64,000 bases of DNA from an uncultured Clostridia bacterium (GTDB lineage Bacteria > Bacillota > Clostridia > TANB77 > CAG-508): the NCBI GenBank assembly GCA_934141605.1, contig CAKPCL010000005.1:4574-68573 (forward strand), given 5' to 3'. Under the pieces are notes generated by a model. It made no database searches and was not told where the DNA came from. It saw only the letters and a program-made list of their open reading frames with translations. The translations under genes were made by a program, and so were the position numbers. Shown here in pieces: positions 52,650 to 61,250 of the stretch; position 1 is the first letter of the stretch; the number at the start of each line of letters is the position of its first letter.

Positions 52650-53003
52650 TTATCTTTCATTATCATCTTGCTCTTTTCCTTTTTCATCTAATCCACCCAT
52701 CATTCTTCTGAATCTAGCTTTTGTTTCTGGATCAAGTTTATCAATTTGTGCTGATACTTTTTGCTCTGCTTTTTCTAAATCTTTTTTTGCAGAATCTAAA
52801 TCAGTTTGTCTTTCTGTAACAACATCTCTACATCTTTCAACTTCTTCTAATAGTTCGAGCATTTCTACCATTGGTGATTTATTTCTTTTTTCACTATTTC
52901 TTTCTCTCATAGTCCCTGGCACTCTAGCGACATCACTAATTCTACTTGAATTTGTACTTCCCTTTCCACTATAACTTGAACTTCTATAACTACTTGCTCC
53001 CAT
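52650..53003 (-). CDS. hypothetical 117-aa protein: Ser-rich N-terminus, coiled-coil C-terminus
   Basis: AGGAGG RBS. MGASSYRSSSYSGKGSTNSSRISD… Locally less AT-rich than its neighbours. Confidence 0.5.
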   Translation of the reverse strand: MGASSYRSSSYSGKGSTNSSRISDVARVPGTMRERNSEKRNKSPMVEMLELLEEVERCRDVVTERQTDLDSAKKDLEKAEQKVSAQIDKLDPETKARFRRMMGGLDEKGKEQDDNER

Positions 53004-53087
53004 AATATTACCTCCTAAAATTTATTCCTTATCAATATATATAATAACATAAAAAACGATTTTAGTCAAATTTTTACAGTTTTTCGA

Positions 53088-53195
53088 TTATTTATATATC
53101 AATTTTTCTTTATATTTTTTGCCATTAATTTTTAGTTTTATATCAAAACTTAATATATCTGGTAAATTTTCAAATTTTACCTTTTCACTTATCAT
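53088..53195 (-). CDS. possible 35-aa small ORF overlapping the SelO-like stop region
   Basis: Not in track. GGTGA 5 nt upstream of the ATG. MISEKVKFENLPDILSFDIKLKINGKKYKEKLIYK. Confidence 0.25.
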   Translation of the reverse strand: MISEKVKFENLPDILSFDIKLKINGKKYKEKLIYK

Positions 53196-53199
53196 AATT

Positions 53200-58288: not shown

Positions 58289-59284
58289 TTATTTTTTTAG
58301 CCATTCATTTGTAATTTTATAATAACTATCCCATCCACCTTTTACATGACTATCATATAAATCTAAGTGTATAGCAGGAGATTTAGCCATATATTTATGC
58401 AGATTATACCTATGCAAATTTTCTAGATTTTTTGAATAAAAATCAAATTGCTTTTTTGATTTATTGTCTAAACTGGCTATTAATTTTTCCTTTTCGTTAT
58501 CTTCCATATTTAAATAATTCAAATATAACTCTACAAAATCGTATGATGCTCCAAAAACAGTTTCATCTGTTCTATTATCATACATATCTCCACTTGGTGT
58601 TACTTCTATAATGCTTTTAGGAATATCTAATTCTTTTGCAACTTTATATACTTCTGATTTATGAATATCTGATATTATTTGCACATCTACCATTCCATCT
58701 GAAGCCTTACCTACATATCCTAAATATGCCCCTTCATCTTTATTAGTTGTTCCACATATAATTGCTCCAAAACCTGCTTGATTTAATAAACTTGTTGTAT
58801 AATAAAGTATTGGTGTTCTACTATACGGAGCTAATTGTCCTATTGCCCAATCTTCTCCTTTTATTCCAATTTCTGGTTCTAAAGTATTTCTTATTTCGGT
58901 ATTTATTTTACTTAATTCCACTATGTATGGTTTAAGTTCTAATTTTTTGCATAATTCTTTTCCTCTTTCAGTTGCCTCACCTTGATTAGTTACTCCTGTT
59001 GATTTCATTACTGGTAATAACATTGGTATTATTCTTTTAATTGGCGAATTTGATTTTTCAGAAGCCTTTTTTATAATTCCTAATACTACTGCTGAATCAA
59101 TACCTCCACTTATGGCTACTACACAGGCTTTTAGTCCATATTTATCCATGTAATTATTTAATAAATTTGATTTTTGCTCTATGTATTCTTTTGCATTAAA
59201 ATTTCTGTTTTTTCTAATATTATCTAATATGTTCATTAATTGTTCACTTATTAATTTATCTGATTGCTCATTATATACTTTCAT
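58289..59284 (-). CDS. NH3-dependent NAD+ synthetase (NadE)-family amidotransferase
   Basis: PP-loop VVAISGGIDSAV, ICGTTNKDEGAYLGYVGKASDG, PSGDMYDNRTDETVFGASYDFVELYL. Start set to MKVYNE, whose ATG overlaps the upstream TGA (ATGA). Confidence 0.75.
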   Translation of the reverse strand: MKVYNEQSDKLISEQLMNILDNIRKNRNFNAKEYIEQKSNLLNNYMDKYGLKACVVAISGGIDSAVVLGIIKKASEKSNSPIKRIIPMLLPVMKSTGVTNQGEATERGKELCKKLELKPYIVELSKINTEIRNTLEPEIGIKGEDWAIGQLAPYSRTPILYYTTSLLNQAGFGAIICGTTNKDEGAYLGYVGKASDGMVDVQIISDIHKSEVYKVAKELDIPKSIIEVTPSGDMYDNRTDETVFGASYDFVELYLNYLNMEDNEKEKLIASLDNKSKKQFDFYSKNLENLHRYNLHKYMAKSPAIHLDLYDSHVKGGWDSYYKITNEWLKK

Positions 59285-60156
59285 AGTAGTATTCCACCTT
59301 CCATTTCCCATTCATATCTTATATGTCCATCTTGAAAAAATATTAAATTTCTGCCATTATCTGGGTTTGTATCTCTTGTATTTTTATTTAATGGTAATGA
59401 TATACAAACATTTTGTCCGTTTACATCATATATAGTTCCTATTCTTTCTAATTCTAATAACTTAGTTCCTTTTTCTTCTAAAAATTCCCTTATTTGTATT
59501 TTTTGTTCATCTGTCAATTTATTTTCTTTTATCCATTCTGCTGCACTTTGTCTTCTAAATTCATCATTCACAGGCCTTAAAGTAACTTGCTCCACTTTAT
59601 TTTCTTTAGCAAATTTTATAAATTCTTCTACTTTTTCTACTGTGTCCATCATGTTTTTGCAACATACACAAGTAAGGCGAAGCGAAAAACCAAAGCTATG
59701 TAAATATTTTATTAAATCTGGTAAATCTATGTATTTATCACTATTTGGCATATATATCTTTTGATTTACCTCTGGCTTATTACTAACTACTGATATTGTT
59801 ATGGTAGTTAATCCCTCATCATACCATTCTTTTAAATATCTTTCATATTTTTCCTTATTAAGGCTAATTGGAATACAATTAGATTGTAATTCAACAAATG
59901 GAAAATTAAATTCCTTTAAATGTTTTAAATATTCTGATATTTGTTCTGGAAAAAGTGTTGGCTCTCCTCTACTTGTTAACATTACAGTATCTATACCACT
60001 TCTGTTTGCTAAATTTCCTGCAATTCTTAGATTTCTCCAATTTATTTTTCTTTCTTTTAAATTTTCCCTATTTGGTTTCACTCCTGAAACACAAAATGGG
60101 CAAGAAGCTATACAGCTTTCAGTTCCTACTACTACACTAAACATTTTAAATTTCAT
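59281..60156 (-). CDS. radical SAM protein (unassigned subfamily)
   Basis: VGTESCIASCPFCVS CxxxCxxC near the N-terminus, SRGEPTLFPE, 291 aa. Confidence 0.75.
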   Translation of the reverse strand: MKFKMFSVVVGTESCIASCPFCVSGVKPNRENLKERKINWRNLRIAGNLANRSGIDTVMLTSRGEPTLFPEQISEYLKHLKEFNFPFVELQSNCIPISLNKEKYERYLKEWYDEGLTTITISVVSNKPEVNQKIYMPNSDKYIDLPDLIKYLHSFGFSLRLTCVCCKNMMDTVEKVEEFIKFAKENKVEQVTLRPVNDEFRRQSAAEWIKENKLTDEQKIQIREFLEEKGTKLLELERIGTIYDVNGQNVCISLPLNKNTRDTNPDNGRNLIFFQDGHIRYEWEMEGGILL

Positions 60157-60158
60157 AA

Positions 60159-61250
60159 CTACTCCTCTATAAATATCTTTTTTAAATCATTACTGTATGG
60201 CATAAAAAACTCTTCAAAATATGCACCTACATCTTTTATTATAAATTTTGCACCTGCTTTTAATTCATTTTTATATTTAGAATTAATATACATTAAGCCA
60301 ATTTTATCTCCGCTATCTGAAGATCCTCCACACATAAAAAATTCATAATTACTTTCTTCTGACTTTTCATATTCTACTTTTATTTCTCTACCATTTTTGC
60401 TTTTTAAATATATTGGAAACTTTTTATTATAAAGCAGAATATCAAAAAAGCCACTATATATACCATTTTTAATTATTACTGTTTTCATACTATTAATTGT
60501 CTTTTCTCTAATAATTTTTGTTTCCATTGCCATAGTATTTTCTACTAGATGTCTTCCTACTTCTAAGATTATTTGACTTATTTTTAATTCTTCTTTAAAA
60601 TTTTCAAGTGTTTCCTTACTAATCTCTTTACTTTGTTTCAGTCCTCCAACACTTATAAAATTAATTCCTAAATTATTATAATTTTCTTGTATATATCTAA
60701 GTATTCTCTCCAAAGCATTATCTTCTGCTTTTAAGTTGTTTTGTATATAAAATGAAATTCCATAATCTTTGCACTTGTTATCTTTCAAAAATGAAAAAAT
60801 TTTTAAGCATTCCTCAAAATCTGCTCCCAAATGTGTAAATTTGTCATTAAATACTTGTGTTGTTGCTAATCGTATTGCTATCTTTACTTTCGATAAATCT
60901 GCATATTTTGAAAATTCAATAACTGTATTTAAGTTATCAAATGTAAAAAATCTTACACCATTATCATATAAATACTTTACTGTATTATTTTCTGCTAATA
61001 CATTTATAAAGCACATCTTTAATGGATTAACATTTGCACTTTTTAGAACTTCAAAATGATATATAGAACTAATCAAATAACCGTTATTTCCTTTTTCTAT
61101 TAGTGGTTGCAAAGTTTTTATTATAACCTCATTTGTATTAGTTTTTAACGGATAATATATATTACCCAGATAACTAAAATCATTGAAGTTGTGTATTAAT
61201 TTGTTTTTATTAAAATAAAAGTAAATATTATTTTCTTCTAAGTTTACCAT
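60159..61250 (-). CDS. PLP-dependent decarboxylase, fold type III (Orn/DAP/Arg decarboxylase family)
   Basis: YYPLKTN (PLP Lys), SVGGL, LEVGRHLV, MCGGSSDSGD, DVGAY. Start moved to MVNLEEN (AAGAGG RBS). Confidence 0.65.
   Translation of the reverse strand: MVNLEENNIYFYFNKNKLIHNFNDFSYLGNIYYPLKTNTNEVIIKTLQPLIEKGNNGYLISSIYHFEVLKSANVNPLKMCFINVLAENNTVKYLYDNGVRFFTFDNLNTVIEFSKYADLSKVKIAIRLATTQVFNDKFTHLGADFEECLKIFSFLKDNKCKDYGISFYIQNNLKAEDNALERILRYIQENYNNLGINFISVGGLKQSKEISKETLENFKEELKISQIILEVGRHLVENTMAMETKIIREKTINSMKTVIIKNGIYSGFFDILLYNKKFPIYLKSKNGREIKVEYEKSEESNYEFFMCGGSSDSGDKIGLMYINSKYKNELKAGAKFIIKDVGAYFEEFFMPYSNDLKKIFIEE

Follow-up and report, generated by a model that had tools for sequence, protein, structure and literature searches.

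Which product or function could join, in a single operon, NAD-type nucleotide enzymes with two radical SAM enzymes, a PLP decarboxylase, a GNAT acetyltransferase and a SelO-like protein? This question is raised by an uncultured Clostridia bacterium, described as a gut Clostridium, and was addressed in a stretch of 64,000 nt from its contig CAKPCL010000005.1 (assembly GCA_934141605.1), referred to here as the window. An initial annotation had offered three hypotheses: synthesis of a modified dinucleotide that the SelO-like enzyme would transfer to a target, an NAD-replenishing counter-defence module, and a RiPP-like system acting on small ORFs. Our analysis supports the second, the first in part, and the third not in the form proposed; the genes, hairpin and mobile element previously described were recovered, but two micro-ORFs and the module boundary had to be revised.

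Operon layout and the carrying element

The minus strand carries eight main co-directional ORFs at 52650–61250, beginning with the PLP decarboxylase gene and ending with the gene for a 117-aa protein. ORF calls and gap lengths bear out their tight packing: from the decarboxylase gene to the SelO-like gene, the intergenic intervals are 2 nt, an overlap, and 39, 13, 5 and 6 nt. The overlap, between the first radical SAM gene (rSAM1) and nadE, had been placed at 59281–59284; this is possible, with an ATG at 59284 overlapping the rSAM1 stop as ATGA, and an alternative in-frame ATG at 59311 is open too. The domain identities assigned to the main genes hold, by Pfam and NCBIfam profiles for most of them and by AlphaFold2 modeling with Foldseek for the SelO-like protein and the NMNAT. 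A hairpin with a U-run at 52575–52622 (minus strand) is terminator- or attenuator-like, with an RNA folding energy of −16.1 kcal/mol (z = −4.5; 0 of 200 shuffles equally stable). Although this hairpin had been taken to end the operon, the conserved module does not stop there, since the gene for a 253-aa protein (p253) that follows is syntenic in 17 loci; the module thus reaches past the hairpin to p253, which ends at 51773. Within the operon, neither an NAD riboswitch nor any other known RNA element was found.

The operon is flanked by genes for a RepA_N replication initiator (61378–62247, minus strand; Pfam RepA_N, E = 1.6e-23) and a large serine recombinase (49112–50863, minus strand; Pfam Resolvase, Recombinase and Zn_ribbon_recom), in agreement with its earlier placement inside a serine-recombinase element, between replication gene and recombinase. 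The RepA_N backbone recurs in six other loci (L011, L012, L015 and L053–L055), and the operon rides as cargo on a RepA_N/serine-recombinase element that is widespread.

The NadE/NMNAT-PRTase core and its oxidative enzyme

NadE (58289–59311, or from 59284; minus strand) is an NH3-type NAD synthetase, matching Pfam NAD_synthase (E = 7.7e-33) and scoring 109.6 bits against TIGR00552 nadE, above the curated cut-off of 63.65; NCBI PGAP also annotates its plasmid-locus homologues as NadE. The adjoining gene (56546–58249, minus strand) encodes a 567-aa fusion of an N-terminal helical domain (~1–95), an NMN/NaMN adenylyltransferase (~100–290) and, C-terminally, a divergent PRTase-like domain of type I (~340–567). 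The NMNAT domain carries the motifs GGFDPIHEGH and SSRxIR and matches the PDB profile of 9rpk (E = 1.2e-32). In a Foldseek search with the AlphaFold2 model of the fusion (pLDDT 91), the top 10 matches were NMN/NaMN adenylyltransferases throughout. NadE and the NMNAT domain are therefore genuine family members. The PRTase half of the fusion, as first annotated, is a more tentative call: a PRPP loop, ILVDDDSATGKT, and weak HMM matches, all located at this loop (Pribosyltran in 3 of 15 members, best 9.7e-5; PRTase_2 in 6 of 15), hint at a phosphoribosyltransferase.

NadE adjoins the NMNAT-PRTase protein in all 64 loci examined (51 loci, 4 plasmids and 9 viral contigs). In some lineages a single polypeptide runs from NadE through a 2OG-Fe(II) oxygenase to NMNAT and PRTase. 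The fusion family comprises at least 619 clusters at 50% identity (E ≤ 1e-30). The core occurs in phages, plasmids, integrative elements and many bacterial phyla, and the NadE–NMNAT-PRTase pair is present in IMG/VR viral contigs (L064–L072); among the cultured phages in INPHARED, none carries the fusion or rSAM1. The chance juxtaposition considered in the initial annotation is excluded, as the gene set is strongly conserved elsewhere. Searches of PADLOC, NCBIfam, Pfam, PHROGs and the searchable literature matched no characterised pathway or defence system of this composition, as had been supposed; the operon is conserved yet undescribed.

rSAM1 (291 aa; 59281–60156, minus strand) has a CX3CX2C motif and a Pfam Radical_SAM score of 34.9 bits. 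No other gene of the cluster is as conserved: identity is 69–95% over 30 loci, with a mean column identity of 81%. Its resemblance to MoaA, viperin and QueE is weak and sub-threshold in each case, and our search found no close PDB relative; judged by sequence, rSAM1 is a new radical SAM subfamily. Each core includes one oxidative enzyme, rSAM1 in anaerobes and the 2OG-Fe(II) oxygenase elsewhere, and the two (30 and 20 loci, respectively) are mutually exclusive within the same operon. The oxygenase is P4H-like, its closest solved structures being protein prolyl hydroxylases. rSAM1 homologues were also found in 25 viral contigs, 14 of which have adjoining NAD genes; on uncultivated phage contigs they lie inside canonical PncA–PncB–NadD–NadE clusters, whose four NAD proteins all score above curated cut-offs.

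Accessory genes and two frameshifts

The cluster is modular: to the universal core are added a PLP decarboxylase, a GNAT, a SPASM radical SAM enzyme (rSAM2), the SelO-like protein, the Ser-rich 117-aa protein and p253. The 363-aa fold-III (Orn/Lys/DAP) decarboxylase-like enzyme (60159–61250, minus strand) scores 38.6 bits against Pfam Orn_Arg_deC_N (cut-off 23.4), has Lys/Orn decarboxylase 5gjm as its best PDB profile match (E = 1.4e-17), and retains an invariant PLP lysine (YPLKTN) across 15 homologues. Its gene is present in 27 Firmicute loci and missing from L016, L017, the viral loci L064–L072, all oxygenase-type loci and all non-Firmicute loci; it is a Firmicute accessory gene outside the universal core. 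The 152-aa GNAT (56074–56532, minus strand; Pfam Acetyltransf_1, E = 1.2e-15) is fused to the C-terminus of NMNAT-PRTase in homologues of 705–714 aa. In microcin C-type systems, MccE combines a fold-III PLP decarboxylase with a GNAT acting on a nucleotide conjugate, a pair also found in the nucleotide-centred cluster of the window. Here, however, the two are not fused together, and the cluster is without MccB-like adenylyltransferase, heptapeptide precursor and MccD.

rSAM2 (main body 333 aa; 55067–56068, minus strand) is of the radical SAM/SPASM type by Pfam Radical_SAM and Fer4_12; NCBIfam matches it best to the YydG-family epimerase (1.1e-12) and also to the peptide-modifying SPASM enzymes WgkB and AlbA, all sub-threshold. 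The Cys-rich micro-ORF previously listed as a separate gene (48 codons, CETSCYGCEFCIKFC; 54961–55107, minus strand) is the detached C-terminal tail of rSAM2. In most homologues rSAM2 and its tail form a single ORF of 367–369 aa, and the tail is in frame and contiguous in L001, L008–L010, L012 and others. The split is due to a 1-nt insertion: in the window, as in L011 and L013, GTT is followed by an additional C. Most codon substitutions within the tail are synonymous, and the split lineage has lost a +1-frame TAA.

The SelO-like gene is likewise frameshifted. The window encodes a truncated protein of 584 aa with a SelO/YdiU-like pseudokinase fold (53200–54954, minus strand); intact homologues have 616–623 aa, and the possible 35-aa ORF of the initial annotation is their last ~35 residues, recovered within an out-of-frame 41-aa ORF (53088–53213, minus strand). 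The cause is an extra A within the run GAAAAAC, and the 584-aa form recurs in near-identical assemblies. Because both the rSAM2 and SelO-like genes are frameshifted, the accessory layer may be impaired in the window. For an intact homologue, the AlphaFold2 model (pLDDT 76.6, pTM 0.85) predicts a fold specific to SelO/YdiU: the top nine Foldseek PDB matches are all SelO/YdiU with probability 1.0, YdiU–NAD complexes among them, and the protein has glycine-loop, Lys, Glu, HG..N and D-x-D motifs collinear with those of E. coli SelO. SelO is reported to bind NAD, to split it hydrolytically into NMN and AMP, and to act as an AMPylase on Ser, Thr and Tyr residues (PMC13391479). Compared with SelO/YdiU, the SelO-like protein shows only ~12% identity and scores 22 bits against NCBIfam YdiU (cut-off 431); it has 140 additional residues and a beta-rich domain at its C-terminus, and GN stands in place of the catalytic-loop DN. 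Its family, of ~320 clusters at 90% identity, is restricted to such operons.

The 117-aa protein (52650–53003, minus strand) carries near its N-terminus the conserved motif MG(A/S)SSY..YSGKGS; it also has a Ser-rich linker and a coiled coil with LDPET at its end, and matches no family in Pfam, NCBIfam or the other libraries searched. It was detected in 16 of 20 loci having the SelO-like gene, as tandem paralogue pairs in some. A promoter-like site lies 5' of its gene and the hairpin 3'. It is a candidate partner or substrate for the SelO-like enzyme. p253 (51773–52534, minus strand) follows in 17 loci at 49–94% identity and has Rossmann methyltransferase-like motifs (VVEIAPGF, IIDTN, SNHxIDD), with a weak match to the SAM methyltransferase 3dh0 (E = 0.13). 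In loci from gammaproteobacteria and the candidate phyla radiation (CPR), distant p253 relatives adjoin the NadE/NMNAT-PRTase pair.

Proposed pathway and alternative readings

On balance, we think it probable that the core, together with the Firmicute decarboxylase, forms a self-contained pathway to NAD+ or a close NAD-type dinucleotide for the mobile element, and that the SelO-like protein acts on the 117-aa protein. First, the PRTase domain would couple a pyridine carboxylate, most simply nicotinate, with PRPP. The mononucleotide would then be adenylylated by the NMNAT domain, and its carboxylate amidated by NadE. This scheme would be Preiss–Handler logic built from non-orthologous parts, with one C–H-activating enzyme, rSAM1 or the P4H-like oxygenase, always in the pathway. 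A second layer comprises GNAT, rSAM2, p253, the SelO-like protein and the 117-aa protein, whose Ser/Tyr-rich N-terminus the SelO-like enzyme would nucleotidylate, using either ATP or the dinucleotide.

Genomic context makes NAD replenishment the best-supported reading for the core. An NrtR regulator lies directly upstream in two distant lineages, a Firmicute mobile element (L003) and the Leptospira plasmid p1 (NrtR_WHD, 8e-28); PncB or PncA plus PncB are neighbours of the module in L019 and L051, and nadD with a second nadE lies near it in L016. TIR, Abi and HNH genes adjoin the core in Leptospira, macro and SLOG genes lie nearby in Paenibacillus, and the IMG/VR contigs add viral carriage. The proposed order of reactions, base plus PRPP, adenylylation, NadE amidation, is that of the Preiss–Handler pathway (PncA, PncB, NadD, NadE), beside whose genes the module and rSAM1 homologues occur. 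Unlike that pathway, the window cluster is without a nicotinamidase and a PncB-family enzyme, having instead the PRTase-like domain fused to NMNAT, and its obligatory radical SAM enzyme or oxygenase has no place in the known route. The phage NAD+ reconstitution systems NARP1 (Adps and Namat), NARP2 (NampT and NMNAT) and NARP3 (PnuC and NadR-like) counter NAD-depleting immunity (bioRxiv 10.1101/2024.02.11.579819; PMC13464706). Like them, the cluster places NAD-building genes, including an NMNAT-type step, on phages and mobile elements as a candidate anti-defence; unlike them, it lacks a PRPS-like Adps, a NAMPT-family enzyme, PnuC and a NadR kinase by Pfam and NCBIfam, and its route would be NadE-dependent (deamido), with a radical enzyme.

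The modified-dinucleotide hypothesis survives in part. Its PRTase–NMNAT–NadE logic is consistent with the fusions, and transfer by the SelO-like enzyme fits the reported binding of NAD by SelO (PMC13391479); synthesis of the base by the decarboxylase and a radical SAM enzyme is weakened because the decarboxylase is absent from phage and non-Firmicute versions. A rival reading, which we regard as possible although we would not bet on it, is that the product is a tailored analogue of NAD or a nucleotide natural product. The radical SAM enzyme or oxygenase would alter the pyridine or ribose. Instead of ammonia, NadE may couple an amine or amino acid provided by the decarboxylase or an Asp/Glu racemase, and the GNAT would cap the coupled group. 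The outcome would be a cofactor resistant to NADases, an inhibitor of NADases, a signal or the donor used by the SelO-like transferase. Such tailoring would give work to the universal oxidative enzyme, fused even between NadE and NMNAT-PRTase, which is left unexplained if the product is plain NAD+ because a full Preiss–Handler route has no need of a radical or oxygenase reaction. Genes for amino-acid handling and acyl transfer recur across unrelated lineages (the decarboxylase and GNAT in Firmicutes, a racemase in CPR loci, and a racemase with a GNAT-like 390-aa protein in Variovorax), GNAT is fused to NMNAT-PRTase in some homologues, and variant loci hold extra methyltransferases, ATP-grasp ligases, radical SAM enzymes and kinases. 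Moreover, some loci have both PncB and the fusion, so that the PRTase domain may act on a different base or have a different role. However, NadE scores as a bona fide nadE, consistent with its PGAP names; NrtR control and PncA/PncB neighbours suggest ordinary NAD homeostasis; phage rSAM1 homologues accompany a complete canonical salvage set without tailoring genes; and decarboxylase, GNAT and racemase are not universal.

We consider a RiPP-like or protein-maturation role of the accessory half unlikely; in such a system rSAM2, GNAT and p253 would modify the 117-aa protein, its coiled coil being follower-like, the SelO-like enzyme would add a nucleotide and the NAD genes would only supply co-substrate. 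The sub-threshold matches of rSAM2 to peptide-modifying enzymes, and the conserved N-terminal motif, tandem paralogues, promoter-like site and hairpin of the 117-aa gene, would fit this reading; yet both micro-ORFs proposed as precursors fail as such because they are frameshift fragments of upstream genes, leaving the 117-aa protein alone as a candidate. In addition, L016 lacks rSAM2 and GNAT yet retains the SelO-like gene, p253 and the 117-aa protein, family searches detected neither a transporter nor a protease nor a known RiPP recognition element, and the accessory block is seen solely attached to the NAD core. Least probable of all is a defence or abortive-infection system in which the SelO-like protein cleaves NAD and the biosynthetic genes buffer or reset it: the NADase activity reported for SelO (PMC13391479), the YdiU–NAD structural matches, the mobile-element cargo position and the TIR and Abi neighbours in Leptospira are set against a core that, in viral contigs and in housekeeping chromosomal surroundings, is found with no SelO-like gene, no system detected by PADLOC and no evident sensor component. 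For its NADase activity, SelO needs a C-terminal Cys/Sec motif.

For the favored pathway to NAD+ or a close dinucleotide, the tailoring-type accessories (GNAT, methyltransferases, ATP-grasp ligases, radical SAM enzymes, kinases, PLP decarboxylase and racemase) hint at a modified product. Most plausibly, the module would keep NAD available to the phages, plasmids and integrative elements that carry it, including under NAD-degrading immunity.

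Organization of the operon and its mobile setting

The operon occupies the minus strand of a region with ~26% G+C. It opens with a fold-type III PLP decarboxylase-like gene (60159-61250) and continues with rSAM1, encoding a 291-aa radical SAM enzyme (59281-60156), nadE (58289-59284/59311), a gene for a 567-aa fusion of NMNAT to a PRTase-like domain (56546-58249), a GNAT gene (56074-56532), rSAM2, encoding a SPASM-type radical SAM enzyme (55067-56068), a 48-aa Cys-rich ORF (54961-55107), a gene for a 584-aa SelO-like protein (53200-54954), and a gene for a Ser-rich 117-aa protein with a coiled coil (52650-53003). 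The ORF map bears out the compact gene spacing and the mobile-element setting recorded in the initial annotation: a RepA_N initiator (61378-62247) is encoded upstream and a large serine recombinase with Resolvase, Recombinase and zinc-ribbon recombinase domains (49112-50863) downstream. That annotation had ended the operon at a hairpin followed by a U-run (52575-52622; −16.1 kcal/mol, z = −4.5). However, the gene for p253, a 253-aa protein with only methyltransferase-like motifs (51773-52534, minus strand), lies beyond the hairpin and follows the small-protein gene in 17 loci; the conserved unit therefore reaches past the hairpin.

With a large serine recombinase at one end together with replication genes, the carrying element has the make-up of an integrative element, and many assemblies have this backbone with the module intact. 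Genes for FtsZ, a TPR protein, a YhcG/DUF1016 nuclease, an HD protein, a NUDIX hydrolase and a PD-(D/E)XK nuclease (42360-48590) look chromosomal and lie beyond the recombinase end, which places the left boundary of the element near 49000. Across the entire window, only three tRNA genes (30271-30342, 33492-33565 and 33586-33657) reached the gathering score of an Rfam family, and neither the operon nor its surroundings gave a riboswitch match. A promoter scan returned 84 sites against 87 expected, that is, chance level in AT-rich DNA. The strongest promoter-like site in this region (53041-53069; TTGACT, 17-nt spacer, TATTAT, extended TG) lies upstream of the 117-aa gene. Because of this site and the strong hairpin downstream, the gene may form its own, highly expressed transcription unit.

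Comparison of the window proteins with 51 related loci by tblastn and blastp revealed that two accessory genes, rSAM2 and the SelO-like gene, are frameshifted in the window. The 48-aa ORF is the in-frame C-terminus of an rSAM2 of ~368 aa in most homologues, and a 41-aa ORF is the C-terminus of a SelO-like protein of 616-623 aa in most homologues. An extra C after GTT, a 1-nt insertion, splits rSAM2, and this split is common to two other loci (L011 and L013); an extra A in the five-A run GAAAAAC (53200-53213) shortens the SelO-like gene. Within the split lineage, codon changes in the detached rSAM2 tail are mostly synonymous (8:4, 4:1 and 7:5), and the TAA that blocks the +1 frame of intact rSAM2 genes is gone. 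For these reasons, the tail appears still to be made as a separate 48-aa peptide, and this pattern suggests that the gene is not dead but encodes a split protein that is stably kept. Near-identical assemblies are the only others with the 584-aa SelO-like form; since it is the same in several of these metagenome assemblies, the truncation is probably a real recent mutation rather than an assembly error.

The fragments also bear on an early proposal of a RiPP-like system acting on the small ORFs. We reject the two micro-ORFs as RiPP precursors, because both are C-terminal frameshift fragments, and no dedicated short precursor-peptide gene was found beside the SPASM maturase. It is possible that the 117-aa protein is a RiPP substrate. 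rSAM2 itself carries the CX3CX2C motif and the SPASM auxiliary-cluster cysteines (CNCNCKDC, CNGDCYPC...CETSCYGCEFCIKFC), with the last Cys block on the separate 48-aa ORF in the window.

Conserved core and accessory genes

Homologues of the fusion protein number in the hundreds. When 1.84 billion representative proteins were searched with a profile, at least 619 clusters at the 50% identity level were recovered (E ≤ 1e-30), and the best 150 of the 619 matches were all full length. NadE adjoins the fusion in every locus of the genome, plasmid and viral collections, and rSAM1 precedes NadE in 30 Firmicute loci. In 20 other loci its place in the operon is taken by a 2OG-Fe(II) oxygenase with an intact HxD...H...R set, fused to NadE in some of them. 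These oxygenase-type loci come from Myxococcota, Chthonomonadales, Saccharibacteria, Peregrinibacteria, Streptomyces, Variovorax, Leptospira, Paenibacillus and two viral contigs of >430 kb. Three further loci have another, different radical SAM protein. rSAM1 and the oxygenase do not co-occur in any locus; given this mutual exclusion and their shared operon position, we infer that they do the same job. Single chains of 1069-1429 aa join NadE, the oxygenase, NMNAT and the PRTase, and we take this set as the core. Operons reduced to the core were found on a 171-kb phage-like contig, in an integrase/Mob element and at chromosomal sites. Synteny of the gene set is kept across more than 60 loci, and chance juxtaposition is therefore rejected.

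NadE scored above the cut-off of TIGR00552 (109.6 bits, cut-off 63.65), matched Pfam NAD_synthase (E = 7.7e-33) and carries the SGGIDS PP-loop motif, but falls below the full-length equivalog NF010587 (122.6, cut-off 255). The NMNAT domain belongs to the NMN/NaMN adenylyltransferases: the GGFDPIHEGH and SSRNIR motifs are conserved, the family profile of the fusion matches the PDB NMNAT 9rpk (E = 1.2e-32), and the top 10 Foldseek matches of the fusion model (pLDDT 91) are all NMN/NaMN adenylyltransferases with probability 1.0. Its score against the equivalog model TIGR00482 was 50.9 bits, below the cut-off of 112. The C-terminal domain is a probable PRTase-like domain, judging from a PRPP-loop motif (ILVDDDSATGKT) that is invariant in the fusion family and from weak matches at the same position to Pribosyltran (3 of 15 homologues, best 9.7e-5) and PRTase_2 (6 of 15). 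In the window fusion, Pribosyltran scored 13.6 bits against a cut-off of 26.3; PDB matches of the domain were weak (E ~0.5-1), and Foldseek with the whole fusion model returned no PRTase. Residues 1-95 of the fusion, which are helical and absent from megaphage versions, gave weak J-domain (DnaJ) matches (E ~0.9). No solved structure or curated family is closely related to rSAM1. The operon does not match prokaryotic viperin (pVip): scores against NF038283 (28.3 and 31.2 bits) are far below the cut-off of 180, and the PADLOC pVip matches (E only ~1e-8 to 1e-7) fall on the generic radical SAM core.

All other genes are accessory. The PLP decarboxylase occurs in 27 Firmicute loci and is missing from two loci (L016 and L017), from all oxygenase-type loci and from the viral rSAM1-type loci. 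It is a fold-type III enzyme: Orn_Arg_deC_N scored 38.6 bits (cut-off 23.4), the lysine of YPLKTN is invariant, an EPG(R)-type motif is kept, and Lys/Orn/DAP decarboxylases in the PDB match with E down to 1.4e-17. A 390-aa protein upstream of the Variovorax operon was considered and rejected as a homologue of the PLP decarboxylase. GNAT and rSAM2 form one accessory block, with GNAT fused to NMNAT-PRTase in forms of 705-714 aa. The SelO-like protein, the small protein and p253 form a second, which L016 has without the first. Between NadE and NMNAT-PRTase, three loci (L014, 9016-9423; L017, 8441-9857; L018, 2005-2451) encode between one and three small proteins, paralogous to one another and each with a hydrophobic segment at either end, for which no family match was found. 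Variant operons (L016, 5361-8073; L001, 16466-22118; L035, L038 and L041) encode ATP-grasp ligases, SAM methyltransferases, NUDIX hydrolases, thymidylate/deoxynucleoside-kinase-like proteins, a CoaE-radical SAM fusion and a further coiled-coil protein rich in Ser and Gly, which suggests a larger toolkit around the same core.

The SelO-like protein was placed by structure prediction because sequence models alone were not significant: it had no Pfam match, PDB sequence and profile searches were empty, and the YdiU model NF000658 gave 22.2 bits against a cut-off of 431. An intact homologue was modelled with AlphaFold2 (pLDDT 76.6, pTM 0.85). Its top nine Foldseek matches in the PDB were all SelO/YdiU structures (E ~3e-7, probability 1.0; TM-score 0.49-0.58 normalized to the target), three of them YdiU-NAD complexes, and the next match had E = 0.04. 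With hhalign, the alignment to SelO had E = 0.018 and the catalytic-core motifs are collinear with those of E. coli SelO, but HGSWSVGN takes the place of HGVMNTDN. Foldseek of the model against viral structures found nothing significant, and a further profile search with the protein gave a match list that was no more diverse. The model predicts a SelO-type pseudokinase fold for this protein.

NAD context and comparison with known systems

NrtR is a Nudix-related regulator of NAD metabolism genes. It is encoded directly upstream of, and co-directionally with, the operon in a Firmicute element (L003) and in Leptospira interrogans plasmid p1 (L063; NrtR_WHD, 8e-28). The module is followed by PncB in one locus (L019), by PncA and PncB in a Saccharibacteria contig, and by nadD and a second nadE in L016. 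Upstream of rSAM1, L014 (3780-4697) and L017 (4681-5628) encode a 315-aa protein without a Pfam match but with isochorismatase/nicotinamidase-like motifs (VLLVGIDFQYCF ... SHCAG), which may be a divergent nicotinamidase. Some neighbours are conflict-related: on plasmid p1, genes for TIR-domain, Abi and HNH-endonuclease proteins adjoin the NrtR-nadE-oxygenase-NMNAT/PRTase operon (6503-13463), and the Paenibacillus locus has macro and SLOG genes as neighbours.

A profile search of IMG/VR with rSAM1 retrieved 25 uncultivated, predicted viral contigs. Nine carry rSAM1-NadE-NMNAT-PRTase, and five others encode a full-length rSAM1 homologue (36-47% identity) among canonical salvage genes. The order in one of the five (L086, 10001-14304) is rSAM1-like, a 126-aa ORF, PncB, NadE, NadD and PncA, the last four all above NCBI curated cut-offs; L082, L088, L073 and L085 have similar gene sets. 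Such phage contigs thus have, alongside an rSAM1 homologue, every canonical gene for salvage from nicotinamide to NAD. Our literature search found no paper on phage Preiss-Handler clusters with a radical SAM enzyme. The 8.9-kb region had no megablast match among plasmids and phages, and neither the fusion nor rSAM1 had a tblastn match in 50,697 cultured phage genomes.

As the initial annotation had supposed, no characterized defence or biosynthetic cluster was matched: PADLOC, PHROGs, Pfam and NCBIfam gave no system-level match, PADLOC returned only generic radical SAM matches, and a full-text literature search found no paper describing the gene set. Domain support was likewise not found for LarE/nickel-pincer, diphthamide-like (Dph2/Dph6), 7-deazaguanine (QueC/QueE) or Clostridium N-formylaspartate nicotinate routes. 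Three phage NAD-rebuilding pathways have been described since 2024: NARP1 (Adps, PRPS-like, and Namat), NARP2 (NampT and NMNAT) and NARP3 (PnuC and a NadR-like protein) (bioRxiv 10.1101/2024.02.11.579819; PMC13464706). The operon resembles them in its inferred NAD-rebuilding role but differs from all three in gene content: no PRPS, NAMPT, PnuC or NadR-kinase domain was found in its proteins with Pfam, NCBIfam or PHROGs. Term look-ups in the NARP1/2 preprint and in a survey of viral NAD-ADPr systems returned no passage mentioning NadE, PncA or radical SAM, and the gene set in the NARP3 paper is a different one, made up of two genes.

Proposed roles and their meaning

All functions beyond domain identity are read here from context. 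On that basis, the most parsimonious mechanism for the core would be a compact Preiss-Handler-type line on mobile DNA, running from the PRTase through NMNAT to NadE. This reading fits the earlier idea of an NAD-replenishing counter-defence module; NAD synthesis on mobile DNA agrees with NrtR, the PncA/PncB neighbours and the phage salvage clusters. The operon departs from the canonical route at PncB, as no operon protein matched the NAPRTase family of PncB-type nicotinate PRTases in Pfam or NCBIfam, and tblastn of phage PncB, PncA and NadD against the window found nothing. Moreover, the canonical route needs no radical or oxygenase step, whereas the operon core always has one, and we know of no place for a radical SAM enzyme or 2OG oxygenase in textbook NAD metabolism.

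This step could be a new way to supply or mature the pyridine base, a tailoring of the nucleotide, or the processing of an NAD breakdown product; an rSAM1 homologue is still present in phage clusters with a complete canonical NAD set. The step could also act on a protein, a possibility favoured by the prolyl hydroxylases that are the nearest solved relatives of the oxygenase.

SelO enzymes AMPylate Ser, Thr and Tyr. Because of this and the conserved MG-SSY-YSGKGS N-terminus of the 117-aa protein, the latter is the obvious candidate acceptor, which the co-occurring SelO-like enzyme would modify. SelO was also reported, in a 2026 study, to cleave NAD to NMN and AMP (PMC13391479), and a SelO-like enzyme in an NAD operon would offer a bacterial handle on this NAD-directed activity. 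We think it unlikely that the whole operon combines these steps, with the radical SAM enzyme, or the oxygenase in aerobes, catalysing a new reaction on a pyridine nucleotide or on a precursor of one, which would give mobile elements and phages a new NAD route or a modified NAD, and the SelO-like enzyme moving a nucleotide from the dinucleotide onto the small protein. If true, a modified NAD could, for example, withstand NAD-cleaving immune effectors or inhibit them, and transfer onto a Ser/Tyr-rich small protein would represent a novel type of protein nucleotidylation.

Bacterial immune systems use NAD depletion as a central weapon. Under the Preiss-Handler-type mechanism, the operon points to a further, much more widespread mobile NAD-building gene set, with hosts among gut Clostridia, Bacilli, candidate-phyla-radiation bacteria, Myxococcota, Leptospira, Streptomyces and huge phages. 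NAD synthesis by mobile elements is already known; the uncharacterized enzyme of this operon could be categorically new chemistry, and its radical SAM or oxygenase reaction, once solved, would reveal either an added step in NAD biochemistry or a modified NAD.
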